Shown: piece by piece, positions 1 through 5,846 of the stretch
Position numbering within the stretch: the stretch's first letter is position 1
Layout of the letters: the number at the start of each line of letters is the position of its first letter
Virus record (IMG/VR): IMGVR_UViG_2534681661_000011
Span: 1 to 5,846 of that record
From: a virus
Lineage: Duplodnaviria > Heunggongvirae > Uroviricota > Caudoviricetes
Strand: one strand, 5' to 3'
Length of the DNA: 5,846 bases
Position numbers and translations under genes: made by a program
The notes under the pieces: generated by a model
The model's input: the letters and a program-made list of their open reading frames with translations, nothing else
Told to the model about the DNA's origin: nothing
Databases searched by the model: none

Positions 1-1
1 G

Positions 2-223
2 CTGGCGATTACCGGCTTTACTCCGAATGCCCTGCAACAGCGTGCTTCTCATTGCCTGTATACCATTGCCGAAGAACAAGCGACAAACAGTGCTTCAATC
101 TCTGCTTGTCACGCTCAGGGAATGTTAACGGATTTGCTGTTCATTGCGCTGATTCAGCAGGATCTGGAACTGGCACCAGAACGTATTCGTCATAGTGAAG
201 CGCTGGTGAAAAAACTGGTCTGA
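2..223 (+). CDS. yfhH: 3' end of a host transcriptional regulator gene (RpiR-like, SIS-domain C-terminus); partial, start lies upstream of the window
   Basis: Frame 2 is open from position 2 to a TGA at 221-223 and encodes ...LAITGFTPNALQQRASHCLYTIAEEQATNSASISACHAQGMLTDLLFIALIQQDLELAPERIRHSEALVKKLV*. Not in the ORF track because it has no in-window Met. Family and gene name are from memory: the tail resembles the C-terminus of SIS-domain regulators, and yfhH lies immediately upstream of yfhL in E. coli K-12. Not verified by search. Confidence 0.5.
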   Translation: MAITGFTPNALQQRASHCLYTIAEEQATNSASISACHAQGMLTDLLFIALIQQDLELAPERIRHSEALVKKLV

Positions 224-235
224 GTAAAGAATGCG

Positions 236-241
236 CGTATA
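236..241 (+). promoter_or_regulatory. Candidate -10 hexamer (TATAAT) of the native promoter of the downstream ferredoxin gene
   Basis: Perfect TATAAT at 236-241, about 38 nt upstream of the ATG at 279; a GAGAG Shine-Dalgarno-like motif sits 266-270. No convincing -35 element seen, so this is weak. Confidence 0.3.
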
Positions 242-278
242 ATGCCCGCCCGGTTTGTGTTGTTTTGAGAGTTTCCTT

Positions 279-335
279 ATGGCGTTGTTAATCACTAAAA
301 AATGCATCAATTGTGATATGTGTGAAATCAAATAA
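279..335 (+). pseudogene. yfhL: 5' fragment of a 4Fe-4S ferredoxin gene, truncated at the prophage junction (16 native codons, then 2 foreign codons and a stop)
   Basis: ATG at 279 encodes [16 protein letters not shown], which matches the N-terminus of E. coli YfhL as I recall it ([23 protein letters not shown]...). After codon 16 (gaa, 324-326) the sequence reads atc aaa taa instead of the expected Pro-Glu-Cys-Pro, so the gene is broken at about 326/327. Confidence 0.55.
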
Positions 336-523
336 AAACACATTTATTTTCATAGTGATACAGCAATGTGTTATTGAATGTGTTGTTGGATTTATGGTGC
401 AAAAAAATTTTGCATAAGTTCAGCAACACAAAGATCCCCCCCTTTTCTATAACGGTTCATTTGAGACTCCCCCTTGACTCCCTCTTCGAAATTGAAGACC
501 ATCACCTGTACATAATTACAGTC

Positions 524-802
524 ATGGATAATATTATGCGCAGAAAAGAGTCAAACGTTAGCAGTTTGCCGGAACTCACCAATTTTGAGGTAAGCTATTC
601 TCTGGTTACCAATGAAGTTTACTTGTCTGCATCCTTCACTGATAACATGGCCTGTATACCAAACTGGCCCTTACAAGAATTTCCGGATCAACTAATATGC
701 ATTTCTCGAGCAAAAGCTGTTGCCCTAATCGAAGAGCTCCAGAAGACCATCAACTATATGGATGCAGGAATAGTTCGAAGTTCAGGTAGCCTTCTCCAGT
801 AG
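524..802 (+). CDS. Hypothetical small protein (92 aa from the ATG at 524; alternative ATG at 536); may not be coding
   Basis: Sub-region of track ORF 368..802. The first 52 codons of that ORF run across a palindrome and poly-C tracts and look non-coding, so I start at the internal Met (MDNIMRRKESNV...). No good Shine-Dalgarno, several rare codons (aga, ata, cta, cga), no recognisable motif. Confidence 0.3.
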   Translation: MDNIMRRKESNVSSLPELTNFEVSYSLVTNEVYLSASFTDNMACIPNWPLQEFPDQLICISRAKAVALIEELQKTINYMDAGIVRSSGSLLQ

Positions 803-860
803 CTGACGAGTTTTATAATAATTTGATATATATATCGTTCAATATTAGCGAGTACTTATA

Positions 861-1508
861 ATGAGTGAATTTAGTAATCTTTTAAATAGCATACCTGGAT
901 GGTTATCCTCCTCCCTCACAGCTCTAGTTGGTACTCTTATTGGCGGATGGTTTACCCTAAAAGGAGTCACCCAACAAGCTAAGCTGTCTAAAGTAGAGAC
1001 AGAAAGAGAATCCCTTGAATTACAACTTTCAGTATTAAAAGGAGTTAAGGGAGAAGTTTTCACCCTAATCAATTTATATAATAAAAGGATGAAAACACAC
1101 ATTGATAATATAAAACCGGGACAAATGTTGATTCTCACATTCCCTGTAGGGGATGATAATTTCACATTCTATGAGCAAAATGCGAATGTCATTGCAAAAC
1201 TAAATGATTCTGCTAGAGACTCAATAATTAACATATACACATATTCACGCTCATTAATACAATCATTTAAAGGAAACAACAAACTCATTGAGGATTATGA
1301 AAAAATCCTTATTGGCATGGCAGACAATAACAAAGATAAAACCATGTATAAAAGATTACATGATGCAAAAATAAATGTAATGGTAGATTATGCTCAAGGG
1401 ATAAAAAATATTGATGCAGAGCTAAGAGATGCTGTCAATAAGGGATTCGACATTATCGACCAAGAAGTAAAGTCACTACAAATGAAATTAAACAAATTAG
1501 CTTCATAG
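861..1508 (+). CDS. Hypothetical membrane-anchored coiled-coil protein (215 aa); prophage cargo and candidate phage-exclusion or defence protein
   Basis: Clean ORF in a markedly AT-rich stretch compared with the flanking pin and tail genes (by inspection, not computed). One hydrophobic segment near the N-terminus (GWLSSSLTALVGTLIGGWFTL), then a charged Lys/Glu/Asn-rich region with heptad-like character. No catalytic motif recognised. Sits where e14 of E. coli K-12 carries mcrA. Confidence 0.7.
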   Translation: MSEFSNLLNSIPGWLSSSLTALVGTLIGGWFTLKGVTQQAKLSKVETERESLELQLSVLKGVKGEVFTLINLYNKRMKTHIDNIKPGQMLILTFPVGDDNFTFYEQNANVIAKLNDSARDSIINIYTYSRSLIQSFKGNNKLIEDYEKILIGMADNNKDKTMYKRLHDAKINVMVDYAQGIKNIDAELRDAVNKGFDIIDQEVKSLQMKLNKLAS

Positions 1509-1553
1509 AATGCTCCACTCCCTGTTCAATATTTTTACAAGCTTATCAGCCAG

Positions 1554-1586
1554 CCGTGGCACGTTCTTGCATACGACGTGCTACGG
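1554..1586. terminator. Stem-loop between the convergent cargo gene and pin; possible bidirectional terminator
   Basis: ccgtggcacg (1554-1563) pairs with cgtgctacgg (1577-1586), a 10-bp stem with one G-U wobble and a 13-nt loop, followed on the plus strand by tttcattta. Loop is long and the U-tract weak. Confidence 0.25.
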
Positions 1587-1588
1587 TT

Positions 1589-2143
1589 TCATTTATCTCC
1601 GACCGGAAACTTCTTATACAAAGTCGATACGCCAACATCATAAATGATCGCCACCTTCTGGCGAGGAACTCCTGATGCAATTAGTCGCCCGGCCTGCGCC
1701 CATTGTTCTGGTGTAAGTTTGGGACGACGTCCACCAATTCGTCCCTGTGCGCGAGCAGCTTCCAGTCCAGCTTTTGTTCGTTCAACAATCAGTTCTCGTT
1801 CCATTTCAGCCAGGGCACCCATCACATGAAAGAAAAAACGCCCCATCGGTGTGCTGGTATCAATTGAATCCGTCAGACTACGAAAGTTAATGCCTCGTTC
1901 GCGCAACCCCTCCACCAGCACGACAAGATGCCGCATACTGCGCCCCAGTCGGTCCAGCTTCCAGACAACCAGAGTGTCACCTGCCGATAATGTCCTAAGC
2001 AGTTTTTTCAGTCCCGGCCTTTCGGACTTTGTGCCGCTTATCTTGTCTTCAAAAATCAGCTCGCATCCTGCACAGTTCAGCGCATTACGTTGTAGATCTG
2101 TGTTCTGGTCATTTGTTGATACGCGTACATAGCCAATAAGCAT
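1589..2143 (-). CDS. pin: Serine-recombinase DNA invertase of the Pin/Gin/Cin/Hin family (184 aa)
   Basis: Encodes MLIGYVRVSTNDQNTDLQRNAL...GDTLVVWKLDRLGRS...MGRFFFHVMGALAEMERELIVERT...VSTLYKKFPVGDK, with the catalytic Ser in the VRVSTNDQ motif and a C-terminal HTH. I use the ATG at 2141-2143, which has an AGGGGGA Shine-Dalgarno 5-7 nt upstream, rather than the track's ATG at 2179, which adds 12 non-conserved residues. Confidence 0.95.
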   Translation of the reverse strand: MLIGYVRVSTNDQNTDLQRNALNCAGCELIFEDKISGTKSERPGLKKLLRTLSAGDTLVVWKLDRLGRSMRHLVVLVEGLRERGINFRSLTDSIDTSTPMGRFFFHVMGALAEMERELIVERTKAGLEAARAQGRIGGRRPKLTPEQWAQAGRLIASGVPRQKVAIIYDVGVSTLYKKFPVGDK

Positions 2144-2197
2144 GGTAGATCCCCCTGACAAAAGCAGGAATGATGCCATTTGCTCGTTATTTCTGCA

Positions 2198-2223
2198 TTT
2201 TCATAAACGTTGGTTTGGGAGAA
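2198..2223. other. Invertase crossover site, pin-proximal (26 bp)
   Basis: Plus strand ttttcataaacgttggtttgggagaa; its reverse complement ttctcccaaaccaacgtttatgaaaa shares the first 14 nt and the central AA with the site at 4123-4148 in inverted orientation. Matches the gix/cix/pix-type site architecture as I recall it. Confidence 0.8.
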
Positions 2224-2562
2224 GCGGCTAAAAGGAATGTAGGGACAGGGGCGAATCAGATACCTGATATGGGTAGCTTCACGCTTTCTGTTTCAGGTAC
2301 TGGATATCAAAAATTACCATCAGGTTTTATTCTTCAGTGGGGCTCAATCGGCGCACCAGGCATTGCACAGGATGTAGTAACCCATTTCCCGATTGCATTT
2401 CCAAACAGATGTCTGCGTGTTTTGGTCTCACAAGACTACACACCAGATAGCGGGGCTGTTGGTTATATTGCCTGTGCAGGTTTTAGTCCCGACCCGGTTA
2501 AATTTATATCCAGAGCCAGTACTCCTGGCCTCGGCGCTTCATTTTTAGCGTTAGGCTGTTAA
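2200..2562 (+). CDS. Silent alternative tail-fibre C-terminal segment (no start or promoter of its own); would be fused in-frame to the tail-fibre constant region after inversion
   Basis: Frame of track ORF 2170..2562. The coding part begins inside the crossover site: aac gtt ggt ttg gga gaa = NVGLGE, parallel to ENLGLGE in the expressed gene. Continues ...[29 protein letters not shown]..., which looks like a fibre tip domain. The leading MMPFARYF... of the track ORF is read-through of non-coding sequence. Confidence 0.65.
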
Positions 2563-2583
2563 TTTAGCTATATGGAGTGAAAA

Positions 2584-3024
2584 ATGAATTACATATATTC
2601 CGCGACTACAAACTCTTTCTATCCGCTGGAGATGAAAGAGGATTACACTCAAGCTGACTCATGGCCAGATGATGCTGTTGAAGTTGATGAGCAAGTGTAT
2701 ATTGAGTTTTCCGGATTACCGCCGAAAGGAAAAATCCGTATCGCTGGAGAAAATGGTTTTCCTGCATGGTCTGAAATTCCACCACCAACACATGAGGAAC
2801 AGATTGCTGCAGCCGAACTGGAAAAGCAGCAACTGATTAATCAGGCCAACGATTATATGAACAGTAAACAATGGCCTGGTAAAGCGGCTATTGGCCGGCT
2901 GAAAGGGGAGGAACTGGCGCAATATAATTTGTGGCTGGATTATCTGGACGCACTGGAACTGGTCGATACTTCCGGTGCGCCAGATATTGAATGGCCTACG
3001 CCTCCGGCAGTTCAGGCCAGATGA
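2584..3024 (+). CDS. Tail-fibre assembly protein (Tfa/U family, 146 aa), partner of the silent fibre variant
   Basis: GGAG 7 nt upstream of the ATG. C-terminus ...[27 protein letters not shown] is the conserved Tfa C-terminal motif. Lies directly downstream of the silent fibre segment inside the invertible region. Confidence 0.85.
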   Translation: MNYIYSATTNSFYPLEMKEDYTQADSWPDDAVEVDEQVYIEFSGLPPKGKIRIAGENGFPAWSEIPPPTHEEQIAAAELEKQQLINQANDYMNSKQWPGKAAIGRLKGEELAQYNLWLDYLDALELVDTSGAPDIEWPTPPAVQAR

Positions 3025-3601
3025 CATCCGGCGCGGTGCTGGTATCTGTTGCCGTCACCGCGTCAATGTAATCCAGCGCAGCGTTAAGTCGGGCGGTTTC
3101 TGCCTGCGTCAGATTCCGTCCGGCCTGCAATTTCAGCTGAATCAGACTAATGGAAGCCATTGCAGTATCAATCAGTGACTGACGCTGTGCTTCTGCCGCG
3201 CCTACTGCGGCGCTATGCTGTGCCACAGTATCTGTTACCCATTTCTCACCATCCCATTCATCGTATGGCGTTAACGGGGCGATAGTGGTTGTATTTTCAG
3301 GATAATCACCCGGAGCTGTGATTTCTTTCGATTCTCCTGTTTCGGTGCTATAGATGATTTCACCGCGATGGTCTGACACATATTCCCATGAGTTTAAATC
3401 TGCCGAACGGCAGATTGCATAACCAGCCTTATGTGTGCCAGGAGCATCTAAACAGGAATATGCAGGGATACCGACACCCACAGCAAGATATTCAGTTGAT
3501 GCAGAAATATACTCCCGTGTCTCACTGTCATAGTTATAAACGGTAATCTCTCCTGCCTTTGTGGCAATAAATTTACTATTCAAGATGGCGTTATACATCA
3601 T
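2996..3601 (-). CDS. Tail-fibre assembly protein (Tfa/U family, ~200 aa), partner of the currently expressed fibre
   Basis: Start ATG overlaps the stop of the upstream tail-fibre gene (ATGA, 3598-3601), consistent with translational coupling. C-terminus ...[30 protein letters not shown] is the conserved Tfa motif. Size and N-terminus ([11 protein letters not shown]...) resemble TfaE-type proteins from memory. Confidence 0.85.
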
Positions 3602-4473
3602 GCAGCCCTCACAATGTAATTAAATGAAATATTACGTGGGCGTGTCTCTGCTGCACCGACAATACTGGTACTCAACCCCGTCGCTGTTCGTTTGTTATTT
3701 TTATTTCCTTCAATCAGACAGTTGTAATCATCATTACCAATTAACGAATTAGTGGCATCAATACCGTCCGGGGACAAGGCATTAGTTGTAGAACTTAAAG
3801 TCAGCATCTCGTCTGAACTTGGAAGATTTTTTAATGGTATTTCATTGCGAGAAATACCCGCGTAAAAAAAGGACTCATGCCTGTGCGCTTCAAAAGAGTC
3901 ATCCTGAAGACTTAGCAAGGCACGTCCCGCATCCACACCACGCCCGTCATCCCAGCCACGAATAAACTCACCACGTAAATCAGGCAATTTATTTGTCGGA
4001 TAAGCCTTTGCCAGTTCCGGGTATTCTTCAGCAGAAAAAGCGGCACCGTTGCATTTCAGCCAGCCTGTTGGCGGAGTGGCGGAAGGCCACGGAACAGGCA
4101 CGCCAACGGGTAATGCCGAACCTTCTCCCAAACCAAGGTTTTCGAGAGCCGTTTTCACCGTGCCATCCGATTTGATATCACCAAACGGATTCTTGCGGCT
4201 CAGGTATTCAACAGCAAACCCCGATCCCAGCAATTCAACAAAACCGGGCAGATCACCATTATCAAGCACATCCCGTTGCGTTTTGTCACTTACAAACTGG
4301 GCCAGAGCTGCAGCAATAAAGCTGGCCTGCCGAATAACCTTATTGACTTGCGCACTGGATGCTTTCCCTGCTGTAAATCCGGATAAAAGCGCAGGCAACG
4401 CTTCCCATTCCTCCTGCGACATAACATTGGCATTCCGATCAGTTGCAAACGCTTTAAAGTCATTTTTCGCCAT
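3598..4473 (-). CDS. Tail-fibre protein: constant N-terminal region (outside the invertible segment) fused to variable region A
   Basis: Encodes [27 protein letters not shown]... and ends ...[15 protein letters not shown], with a tail-collar-like region ([24 protein letters not shown]). I prefer the ATG at 4471-4473 (GGAG ~10 nt upstream; TGATG overlap with the upstream gene's stop) over the track start at 4491, which has its Shine-Dalgarno too close and overlaps the upstream gene by 19 nt. The crossover site at 4123-4148 lies in-frame inside the gene (..[10 protein letters not shown]..). Confidence 0.85.
4123..4148. other. Invertase crossover site, pin-distal (26 bp), inside the tail-fibre gene at the constant/variable boundary
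   Basis: ttctcccaaaccaaggttttcgagag; inverted partner of 2198-2223 (14 of 14 identical in the inner half, same central AA). Confidence 0.8.
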
Positions 4474-5153
4474 CAGAGTAATACTCCCCATGCCCCTACA
4501 TCAAAACCACTGATGAATTCGTTATCCATATCAAAACCAAAAAATTTTGAACCTTCCGATGGAGTTTCCACCGAAGGTGTTTCAATGCCACCCGCCCAAA
4601 CCCCGGCGGCTTTTACTGTGAGATATCCCTGTTTAATTGCAGCAATTAACTCACGCGATACATCTGAAATATCAGTATCAGGAAAGAGCCAGACCGATAT
4701 CGTCATGTCCTGGTTATCGACTATCTGCATTCGCAGTCCGGATCCTGCTGTCGCCGCGTCAAGAATTGCTGGAAGCGAATCATTCCGTCCGTCCCAGTTA
4801 TTAATCGCAATCTTCGCTTTAAGGATGACACGATAAGTTTCATCGCTGAGGTACATGTATCCGGAATCAGGATCGTATGGCCCCTGCCATACACCCTGAT
4901 CATATCCAAGCCCGTCGGTATCCCAGCTGAAATAGACACCTGAGATAGGCTGGCTGACAACACGGCTACGTCCGATCCACAATCCAAGAATGTCAAGTTG
5001 CACACCAACCGCAGAGTCAATATCAAATGCAGTAATCAGCCCTCTGGTGGCAGCCGCAACATCAATAAGCGGCCGGGTCATCAGATCAACATGTGCAAGA
5101 AATTTAGGTTTGGTGGCGTGGTAGTTCGTGATCAGTTCGGTGTATTTGCTCAT
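4473..5153 (-). CDS. Phage tail/baseplate protein immediately upstream of the tail fibre (YmfQ / Mu gp48 / P2 gpI-like by position), 226 aa
   Basis: Complete ORF whose start overlaps the upstream gene's stop (ATGA at 5150-5153) and whose stop overlaps the tail-fibre start (TGATG at 4471-4475). Assignment is by gene order in Mu/e14-type tail modules; the family was not confirmed by sequence motif. Confidence 0.6.
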
Positions 5154-5452
5154 GACTCCACCGTTATAACGATATTTTCCGGTGTACAGGACGCAGATTC
5201 GTTGTATCTGATATCAATGTTTGATGACGACAAAGCCCCCGGGGATTTCCCAATCGTCAGTTCCTGAATATCGTAATAGCGTGCATTCCCGCCACTCACC
5301 ACGCCAAGATTCGCCGGTGAGTAAATGCGACTTAAAAGGACCGAATCACCAATCATCAGACTATTGATATAGTCGGAAATAGCCTGCTGGATCTGCTGCC
5401 CTATCTGTGAGGTATAACCCGTAAAAACTTTTAATTTAATCCGGGCATAAAC
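5150..5452 (-). pseudogene. 3' portion of the next upstream tail/baseplate gene (baseplate J-like by position), apparently cut off by the IS element
   Basis: Minus-strand frame ...VYARIKLKVFTGYTSQIGQQIQQAISDYINSLMIGDSVLLSRIYSPANLGVV...NIVITVES* is protein-like and coupled to the downstream gene. Only ~100 codons remain before the putative IS end at 5453; the frame stays open into the IS by chance until a stop at 5585-5587. Confidence 0.4.
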
Positions 5453-5846
5453 GTAAGCGTACAGCCTGAACCGTCTGGTCAGAATCTGACGAATTAGACA
5501 AAGTGGTGTCCACCAAATAAGTAGTGGGAACCAAAGTGTCAGATATGCAGAAAAATGTGACTCCCGGCAGGCGAAAAGGCAGCCCTAATTATCCTCCCGA
5601 ATTTAAACAGCAGCTCGTTGCTGCCTCCTGTGAACCCGGGATATCCATCTCAAAACTTGCTCTTGAAAATGGCATTAACGCCAATCTGTTGTTCAAATGG
5701 CGACAACAATGGCGCGAGGGAAAGCTGCTATTACCTTCTTCAGAGAGCCCCCAGCTACTTCCTGTGACTCTCGATGCAGCTGCCGAACAGCCAGAATCGC
5801 TCGCAGAGGACCCGAAAACCCTCAGTATCAGCTGTGAGGTAACGTT
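5453..5846 (+). mobile_element. Left end of an insertion sequence, probably IS66 family; continues beyond the window
   Basis: GTAAGCG at 5453-5459 matches the characteristic IS66-family terminus as I recall it, about 90 bp upstream of an HTH accessory gene. The exact boundary is uncertain without the other end. Confidence 0.5.
5545..5846 (+). CDS. IS-encoded HTH accessory/transposase protein (TnpA/OrfA-like), N-terminal part; open to the end of the window
   Basis: Encodes MQKNVTPGRRKGSPNYPPEFKQQLVAASCEPGISISKLALENGINANLLFKWRQQWREGKL..., the typical RR..S.EFK...V....G.S.........LL.KWR helix-turn-helix signature of IS3/IS66-type first ORFs. No stop within 100 codons. Confidence 0.6.
   Translation, partial: MQKNVTPGRRKGSPNYPPEFKQQLVAASCEPGISISKLALENGINANLLFKWRQQWREGKLLLPSSESPQLLPVTLDAAAEQPESLAEDPKTLSISCEVT

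Follow-up and report, generated by a model that had tools for sequence, protein, structure and literature searches.

Can the tail-fibre region of this viral record still be inverted by site-specific recombination, and which known system, if any, would do it? We addressed this question in a stretch of 5846 nucleotides, referred to here as the window. Judged from its sequence, the locus is very probably (roughly 90%) a complete, inversion-competent switch of the Din family (Hin/Gin/Cin/Pin), namely an e14-type P-pin cassette carried by a prophage other than e14. Such a switch is already known, its sites and recombinase being essentially those of the e14 system. The P segment and pinE of e14, with the sites pixL and pixR, were reportedly described by Plasterk and van de Putte in 1985.

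Two inverted pix sites flank alternative fibre ends

What does the window contain? A first-pass annotation had proposed a switch of the Gin/Cin/Pin type, and the corresponding parts (an invertase, two inverted sites, and two convergent modules of fibre tip plus chaperone) are all present and intact:

1589-2143, minus strand: pin, Din-family serine DNA invertase, 184 aa (Pfam Resolvase, 6.5e-51, and HTH_7)
2198-2223, minus strand: site 1, pin-proximal, equal to e14 pixR at 26/26 positions; minus strand TTCTCCCAAACC AA CGTTTATGAAAA
2210-4136: invertible segment, 1927 bp from central dinucleotide to central dinucleotide
2224-2562, plus strand: SvB, silent variable fibre end, 113 aa, gp53-like C-terminal domain (Pfam PF21882 Gp53-like_C, 4.3e-15)
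2584-3024, plus strand: tfaB, chaperone cognate to SvB, 146 aa (Pfam Caudo_TAP, 8.4e-38; PHROG 188), silent in the window orientation
2996-3601, minus strand: tfaA, chaperone cognate to SvA, 200-201 aa (Pfam Caudo_TAP, 4.3e-31)
3598-4122, minus strand: SvA, variable fibre end, 175 aa (Pfam Collar, 3e-15; weak S_tail_recep_bd, 9e-4)
4123-4148, plus strand: site 2, within the fibre gene, equal to e14 pixL at 26/26 positions; TTCTCCCAAACC AA GGTTTTCGAGAG
4149-4473, minus strand: Sc, constant N-terminal fibre part, about 108 codons (PHROG 11303 tail fibre, residues 1-122)

The two 26-bp sites had been described as sharing a 14-nt inner half and a central AA. Both were recovered, and the perfect inverted repeat is in fact 15 nt long, within arms of 20 nt at 95% identity. 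Read on the plus strand, site 1 (2198-2223) is TTTTCATAAACGTTGGTTTGGGAGAA and site 2 (4123-4148) is TTCTCCCAAACCAAGGTTTTCGAGAG; both are centred on AA/TT, and each strand of the window carries the inner 14 nt, TTGGTTTGGGAGAA, exactly once. A comparison with pix, cix, and gix had been suggested. Against the reference pixL and pixR sequences (Table 3 of PMC3241671) the identity is complete and covers even the noncoding outer half of site 1, and the central AA is that of cix and hix. The Din-family consensus TTCNNNNAAACNNANGTTTNNNNGAA matches sites 1 and 2 only, with one mismatch each on the best strand (0.29 matches are expected by chance, and none of the shuffles got to 4), and the window holds no further crossover site even at 3 mismatches to this consensus. 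The centre of site 1 precedes the pin start codon by 67 nt, which is also the most frequent spacing among 76 homologous loci.

Could the repeat instead be a chance match, or a conserved LGLGE coding motif, without any role in recombination? A motif encoding LGLGE is frequent at the same position of many fibre genes, and a perfect inverted repeat of at least 15 nt arose in 3 of 200 dinucleotide shuffles (about 1.5%). However, all 26 nt of both sites are those of the published pix sites (PMC3241671), and natural inversion breakpoints, described below, fall exactly inside them. We rejected this explanation on those two grounds and consider it extremely improbable.

Natural genomes carry the segment in both orientations

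Translation confirmed the proposed reading frames at the sites, ENLGLGE in the minus-strand fibre gene and NVGLGE in the plus-strand ORF. The alternative segment had been placed just downstream of the pin-proximal site; its frame is as proposed, but site 1 does not merely precede the segment, as it supplies the first codons. Flipping 2210-4136 in silico produced the sequence of Escherichia coli NZ_LR882978, save for a single mismatch over 5452 nt. This genome encodes the same Pin protein as the window, and its fusion carries the annotation of a fibre protein of 229 aa. In three loci (L002, L004, and L006) SvB is joined in frame to the constant part and annotated as a 229-aa protein. The translated fibre has 291 aa in the window orientation and 229 aa after the flip; together with the natural genomes carrying the flipped form, this bears out the proposal that inversion swaps the C terminus of the fibre in frame.

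Has the exchange taken place at these very sites? In two near-clonal pairs (BH100N and BH100; RIVM_C029670 and RIVM_C036204), the sole difference in 5967 nt is the exact inversion, and the exchange point lies within TTGGTTTGGGAGA, that is, within a core of 13-15 nt. Both orientations also occur among identical or 96%-identical loci of other strains, where the exchange again falls at the centres of the sites, and across complete E. coli genomes the Sc/SvA junction was counted 62 times and the Sc/SvB junction 17 times. Otherwise identical assemblies that differ in orientation here reflect biology rather than assembly error.

In the window, the constant part is joined to a StfE/TfaE-like cassette, with SvA as the attached end; its weak S_tail_recep_bd match is to the receptor-binding domain of short tail fibres. 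The flip, read from the sequence, would replace the C-terminal 175 aa (a collar-type tip) by the gp53-like tip of 113 aa, joined in frame at ...LGLGE, and would also put the cognate tfa gene downstream of the fibre gene. TfaB is 60% identical to K-12 TfaP across its C-terminal 100 aa, and tfaB overlaps the 3' end of tfaA by 29 bp.

The recombinase and a predicted Fis enhancer

Is the recombinase intact? Pin is full length, 97% identical to K-12 PinE, 82% to P1 Cin, and 78% to Mu Gin, and it matches the Gin crystal structures 3uj3 and 4m6f with an E value of 3e-93. Every residue invariant across Pin, Gin, and Cin is kept, and the catalytic Ser9 is unmutated, as first stated. H106 and M114, positions of Fis-independent mutations, are wild type. 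In Hin, H107Y is reported as a Fis-independent substitution (PMC4817059). The start of pin, previously set at 2179, is better placed at the ATG at 2143 (MLIGYVRVS...), in agreement with RefSeq, which annotates the gene as pinE in identical loci. A simple consensus scan around pin found no sigma-70-like promoter upstream of the gene beyond chance expectation, a result that speaks neither for nor against expression.

A Fis-dependent enhancer had been expected in the 5' part of pin, and homology to P1 cin together with constraint on synonymous sites now gives it a predicted position:

2054-2125: predicted recombinational enhancer (Fis-dependent), placed at pin nt 19-90 by homology to the P1 cin enhancer

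In the P1 record the annotated enhancer spans nt 19-90 of cin, where pin is 79% identical without gaps. Two putative 15-bp Fis cores (G-N13-C) fall in this stretch, one at 2108-2122 that reads GTATCAACAAATGAC on the pin strand and one at 2059-2073 that reads GTGCAGGATGCGAGC, with a centre-to-centre distance of 49 nt; Fis sites in such enhancers are spaced 48 bp apart. From the centre of the proximal core to that of site 1 is about 95 bp, and the hin enhancer likewise lies in the 5' part of its recombinase gene, about 100 bp from the closest site (PMC3798978). Among 77 homologues, synonymous positions are nearly frozen in codons 8-11 and 27 (the Ser9 codon is TCA in 77/77 and Thr10 is ACA in 76/77), and the cores have a normalised synonymous entropy of 0.35, compared with 0.84 elsewhere (P = 0.0006). 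When the codons of pin were compared pairwise with those of gin and cin only, the enhancer showed no added conservation; the signal needs the 77 sequences. We infer Fis binding at these cores within 2054-2125.

How might inversion proceed? From the steps established for the Din family, we infer the following for the window copy. Pin dimers would bind both 26-bp sites while Fis dimers occupy two sites within the first 90 nt of pin, and on supercoiled DNA the Pin-bound sites and the Fis-bound enhancer would assemble into an invertasome. Ser9 of each Pin subunit would then make cuts staggered by 2 nt at the central AA/TT; after a 180-degree turn of one subunit pair, religation of the DNA would leave 2210-4136 flipped.

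The carrier prophage and its interrupted tail operon

Which phage carries the switch? The carrier is a myovirus-type prophage of about 42 kb in the 5' end of yfhL, and a homologous full prophage spans yfhH to int-yfhL; strain ETEC-2264, for example, carries the prophage intact. We considered e14 itself and rejected it: the flank is yfhH/yfhL rather than icd, the baseplate gene is DUF2612 rather than ymfQ, and mcrA is absent. Phage vB_EcoM-611R5 was likewise set aside as evidence of an inducible phage, because its record contains the host genes tadA and yfhH and so represents a prophage region, not a packaged genome. The neighbouring ORF of 215 aa had no match in Pfam, PHROGs, PADLOC, NCBIfam, or PDB, and an Rfam scan of the window returned no RNA families. 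Upstream of the fibre gene the window continues as follows:

4473-5153, minus strand: baseplate-wedge gene DUF2612 (Pfam DUF2612, 9e-47)
5150-5452, minus strand: baseplate J/gp47 gene, last 101 codons, cut by the insertion; named from the annotation of the intact homologous prophage
5453-5846, plus strand: IS66-family element, left end, with terminal GTAAGCG and tnpA from 5545 (NCBIfam IS66 TnpA)

Homology to the intact prophage ends at 5452, placing the insertion junction at 5452/5453. The baseplate-J/IS66 junction was absent from 5426 complete E. coli genomes and from the GTDB representative genomes. The insertion has probably made the prophage defective in its tail, and it may exert a polar effect on the fibre genes. 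Variable region A and its Tfa of about 200 aa had been described as expressed. SvA and TfaA are indeed joined to the constant part in the window orientation, but their expression is doubtful because the IS66-family element interrupts baseplate J just upstream in the same operon. With baseplate J disrupted, the switch may also lack a virion phenotype in the source strain.

Might the switch, then, be a frozen relic of a decaying prophage, intact in appearance but with pin silent, so that it no longer flips or flips without consequence? The element severs the tail operon at a point 1 kb 5' of the fibre gene, the scan gave no promoter-like site 5' of pin, and the absence of the IS junction from every other complete E. 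coli genome leaves no sister genome for a comparison of orientation. However, no disabling change is present in pin, the sites, or the enhancer region, which are identical to loci found in both orientations; the equally defective e14 of K-12 still inverts (PMC4272514; PMC12529663); and other Pin-type invertases of the same cell could work in trans. We regard a frozen relic as unlikely and favor an inversion-competent switch.

A different possibility concerns what the host might gain. The pin-proximal ORF starts at 2170, has its own ATG (2170/2173), as K-12 stfE does, and ends at 2562. The alternative segment had been called promoterless; the consensus scan, a weak test, found no promoter for this silent ORF beyond chance, but the ORF is not without a start of its own. 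Could this product, a leader plus the gp53-like tip, block phage adsorption as a phase-variable function retained by the host, by analogy with StfE2? In K-12, inversion of e14 makes StfE2, the StfE leader joined to the StfP tip, and overproduced StfE2 prevents T2 adsorption (PMC12529663). The window has the same leader with its ATG, in an arrangement equivalent to "inverted" relative to MG1655, and RefSeq lists the ORF as a coding sequence in BH100N. Were this so, inversion would switch a host phenotype instead of virion host range. However, the SvB tip resembles the StfP tip at just 27% identity, an in-frame start codon ahead of the pin-proximal site is missing from about half of the homologous loci (so the leader ORF is not a conserved feature), the consensus scan detected no promoter, PADLOC gave no hits, and the K-12 result depends on plasmid overproduction (PMC12529663). 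An anti-phage role of the ORF therefore seems to us improbable. By the same analogy, a host carrying the IS-disrupted prophage might keep the switch, the flip phase-varying the small tip protein (2170-2562) and altering phage susceptibility, with the cassette possibly flipped in trans by the cell's other Pin-type invertases; this is a long shot.

Relation to known inversion systems

How does the inversion-competent switch that we favor compare with its relatives? The closest is e14 P-pin, with the same order of parts (constant part, site, Sv, tfa, tfa', Sv', site, pin), identical 26-bp sites, and a Pin 97% identical to that of the window. TfaA is 88% identical to K-12 TfaE and SvA 55% identical to StfE, and Sc has its last ~30 codons in common with K-12 StfP (blastp, and blastn vs. 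e14), while its N-terminal 90 aa are unrelated. The two differ in location (icd for e14; yfhL for the window prophage, whose tail genes are of the DUF2612 and baseplate-J type), in the gp53-like SvB tip noted above, in segment length (1797 bp in e14 vs. 1927 bp), and in the gene at the mcrA position, taken in the window prophage by the 215-aa ORF. In experiments, PinE inverts the e14 P segment at the same repeats, TTGGTTTGGGAGAAGG (PMC12529663; PMC4272514). As a textbook switch, the locus has little discovery value, and its use lies in annotation: a gp53-like fragment beside pinE and a fibre gene should be named together with them as one invertible locus. The P-pin cassette also moves as a module among unrelated prophage backbones.

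Mu G/gin and P1 C/cin share the recombinase family (78% and 82% identity) and the in-frame swap of fibre C termini with cognate chaperones. In Mu, as in the window, the segment is bordered by the 5' end of the recombinase gene, and in P1 the enhancer is annotated in the 5' coding part of cin, as predicted for pin, although cin is directed toward the segment, unlike the window pin. The central dinucleotide of the window, AA, is GA in gix (PMC3241671). The Mu and P1 segments are longer (3 and 4.2 kb vs. 1.9 kb), and their variable tips are unrelated to those of the window; only TfaB is similar, at 32% identity to Mu U'. In Salmonella H/hin, as in the window, the sites are 26 bp long around a central AA, and a TAATG tract separates the Fis cores, which in the window are putative. 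In Salmonella, however, hin lies inside the segment, which moves a promoter, whereas the window pin lies outside a segment that exchanges coding ends. The p15B Min system and the shufflons have a related site family, and the mix sites share TTCCCCnAAACC AA (PMC3241671). Unlike these multi-site clusters, the window has just two sites and hence two states, not many.

Inversion of the tail-fibre segment in public genomes

Does the fibre segment at this locus invert in real populations? The first-pass annotation described a complete tail-fibre inversion switch, and we find that it is real, complete and correctly interpreted; the inversion system itself is already known. The stretch is laid out as follows.

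Features of the window
Left 345 nt: chromosomal E. coli DNA with the yfhH end and yfhL codons 1-16; everything beyond forms a prophage's right end
524-802, + strand: 92-aa ORF matching PHROG 17793 (function unknown; E 1e-43)
861-1508, + strand: low-GC 215-aa ORF
1589-2143, - strand: pin
2198-2223: site 1, the pin-proximal crossover site
2224-2562, + strand: SvB, a variable fibre end
2584-3024: tfaB, chaperone gene and partner of SvB
2996-3601, - strand: tfaA, chaperone gene
3598-4473, - strand: fibre gene, containing site 2 (4123-4148)
4473-5153: DUF2612 baseplate gene
5150-5452: baseplate J gene, last 101 codons
From 5453 (to 5846): end of an IS66-family element (terminal GTAAGCG; tnpA from 5545)

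Flipping was judged from public genomes with the window's sequence; because these are consensus assemblies, differences in orientation reflect which orientation is in the majority in real populations. E. coli ETEC-2264 has nt 1-5452 of the window at 99.9% identity and in the same orientation; L3_CS7_E2980 (NZ_LR882978) has them with the middle flipped. Once 2210-4136 is inverted in silico, the window and NZ_LR882978 differ by 1 mismatch in 5452 nt; extending the flip over the outer half-sites adds 10 mismatches, which places the exchange within 2210-2224 and 4122-4136. In a version of the locus with 96% identity, an exact inversion is the sole difference across 5967 nt within each of two near-clonal pairs (BH100N and BH100; RIVM_C029670 and RIVM_C036204). 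The inner half-sites of these loci differ from each other by 1 base, thus narrowing the exchange to 13 nt, TTGGTTTGGGAGA, starting at the central dinucleotide. Across 5426 complete E. coli genomes, the junction of the constant part with SvA, the other variable end, is present in 62 and that with SvB in 17.

Fewer than 300 nt of contig precede the invertase gene in 25 of 76 Pin-homologue loci. In 13 of these (L018-L020, L028, L031, L033, L038, L042, L045, L047, L063, L069 and L072) the contig stops 67-79 nt upstream, exactly at the crossover site; these ends look like assembly breaks from mixed orientations in the sequenced cultures. Inside the segment the ETEC-2264 copy (L001) is shorter by 3 nt, and its annotation gives SvB and the fibre gene as split or shortened (L001 14173-14561 and 15739-16470), probably through single-base indel errors in the assembly, since the frames are intact in the window and in NZ_LR882978.

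Crossover sites and outcome of the flip

Both 26-bp sites lie where they had been placed, and the inner 14 nt common to them, TTGGTTTGGGAGAA, have exactly two copies in the window, on opposite strands. The perfect inverted repeat that they form is 15 nt long, a length reached by 3 of 200 dinucleotide shuffles of the window. The consensus for Din-family (Hin/Gin/Cin/Pin) invertases fits both sites and, with 3 mismatches permitted, matches nowhere else in the window (0.29 expected by chance). Letter for letter, site 2 is the pixL of e14, the defective E. coli K-12 prophage, and the reverse complement of site 1 is its pixR (Table 3 of PMC3241671). The core TTGGTTTGGGAGAAGG has been reported for the K-12 P segment (PMC12529663) and is also found in the K-12 sequence record.

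The reading frames run through both sites as described, and the proposed in-frame swap is borne out: inversion of 2210-4136 in silico yields an uninterrupted fibre of 229 aa instead of 291 aa. A constant part of about 116 aa, ending ...ENLGLGE, is joined either to SvA (175 aa; a tail-collar domain plus a weak hit to a receptor-binding domain of short tail fibres) or to SvB (113 aa; a gp53-like C-terminal domain). Behind each tip lies its own Caudo_TAP chaperone gene, the two being convergent with 3' ends that overlap by 29 bp (2996-3024). In the window the StfE/TfaE-like cassette, resembling the fibre and chaperone products of e14, occupies the expression position, whereas the MG1655 reference has the opposite arrangement. 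The homologous C-termini of the chaperones (one reading …LDYLDALELVDTS…) account for a local inverted repeat (2934-2951 with 3060-3077).

Pin and its predicted enhancer

Pin starts at the ATG at 2143 and is 184 aa long; its domains are Resolvase and HTH_7. It shares 97% identity with K-12 PinE, 82% with Cin and 78% with Gin, and matches Gin crystal structures at E 3e-93. Its catalytic serine, Ser9, is unmutated, as had been noted, and all residues invariant among the four proteins are present. RefSeq already names the gene at this locus pinE. A longer ORF starting at 2179 does not have the annotated start.

Where is the enhancer that was expected in the 5' part of pin? Homology to cin, together with synonymous constraint, points to a candidate. 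In the GenBank entry for P1 the enhancer is annotated at cin nt 19-90, and the homologous stretch of pin is window 2125-2054, where pin aligns without gaps to cin and gin and is identical to K-12 pinE. Two G-N13-C 15-mers (pin nt 22-36, 2108-2122; nt 71-85, 2059-2073) are kept in the four genes, except that the first ends in A, not C, in cin. We scored synonymous codon variation at conserved residues in 80 Pin-homologue loci fetched from representative genomes. Codon use in the putative cores is nearly fixed (Ser9 TCA 77/77, Thr10 ACA 76/77, Asn11 AAT 73/77, Cys27 TGT 71/77); at conserved residues outside them nearly all available codons are in use. The two cores have a normalised synonymous entropy of 0.35, compared with 0.90 for the spacer and 0.84 downstream (one-sided Mann-Whitney p = 0.0006), the pattern expected from an embedded pair of protein-binding sites, to which Fis would bind. 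TAATG, present in the spacer, is among the AT-rich tracts described for the interval between the hin enhancer's Fis sites (PMC3798978). The centre of the proximal putative core lies about 95 bp from that of site 1; the corresponding distance in hin is about 100 bp (PMC3798978). Among the homologous loci (L012-L091), the recombinase-proximal site, counted from its centre, lies 67 nt upstream of the start codon in 20 cases, the window included, and 76-78 nt upstream in 12. The two spacings differ by one helical turn, and crossover site and predicted enhancer may therefore have to keep a fixed phase.

Relation to e14 and expression of the fibre

The likeness to e14 is confined to the module: pin with pixR (94% DNA identity), a tfaE-like region (88%), the start of the StfE-like tip (90%) and the last 80 nt of the constant part (96%). 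The fibre's first 90 aa, the DUF2612 gene and the entire backbone are unrelated, and the intact ETEC-2264 element, about 42 kb, has sheath-type tail genes. By sequence comparison, this shared module on a different backbone marks the locus as a P-pin cassette carried by a phage other than e14. Mosaicism of tail-fibre regions has long been known (Sandmeier 1994, cited in PMC3241671).

Region A and its Tfa had been called expressed. They do occupy the expression position, but actual expression is uncertain because baseplate J, which is transcribed in the same direction, is interrupted about 1 kb upstream by an IS66-family element. This insertion may be polar, and the prophage is probably tail-defective in the window's strain. 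The exact baseplate J/IS66 junction was found in none of the 5426 complete E. coli genomes and in none of the GTDB representative genomes, so neither collection includes the source strain. That the alternative segment is promoterless, a weakly tested point, is plausible. An ATG of its own (2170/2173) is present in the pin-proximal ORF, which shares the leader MMPFA...FINVGLGE with K-12 stfE; StfE2, the corresponding K-12 chimera, is reported to block T2 adsorption when overproduced (2025; PMC12529663). By analogy the switch would serve host benefit, a reading of low probability. The leader is not general: in about half of the homologous loci, no in-frame start precedes the site.

Prophage end and flanking genes

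The first 16 codons of yfhL, a ferredoxin gene, occupy 279-345 (MALLITKKCINCDMCE) and are followed by phage DNA. The intact ~42-kb prophage of ETEC-2264 ends in a tyrosine integrase beside a complete yfhL; this puts the att site within the 5' end of the gene, and what the window carries is the leftover duplicate. The 92-aa ORF (524-802) separates the att end from the 215-aa ORF. The 215-aa ORF (861-1508; WP_001288820.1), conserved in many E. coli, has a GC content of about 30-37% against about 48% in its surroundings, and its product has a hydrophobic N-terminal helix with a coiled-coil-like remainder. Searches of Pfam, PHROGs, PADLOC, NCBIfam and PDB gave no match. In e14 the restriction gene mcrA takes this place between pin and the end of the prophage, which makes the ORF a candidate moron or defence gene.
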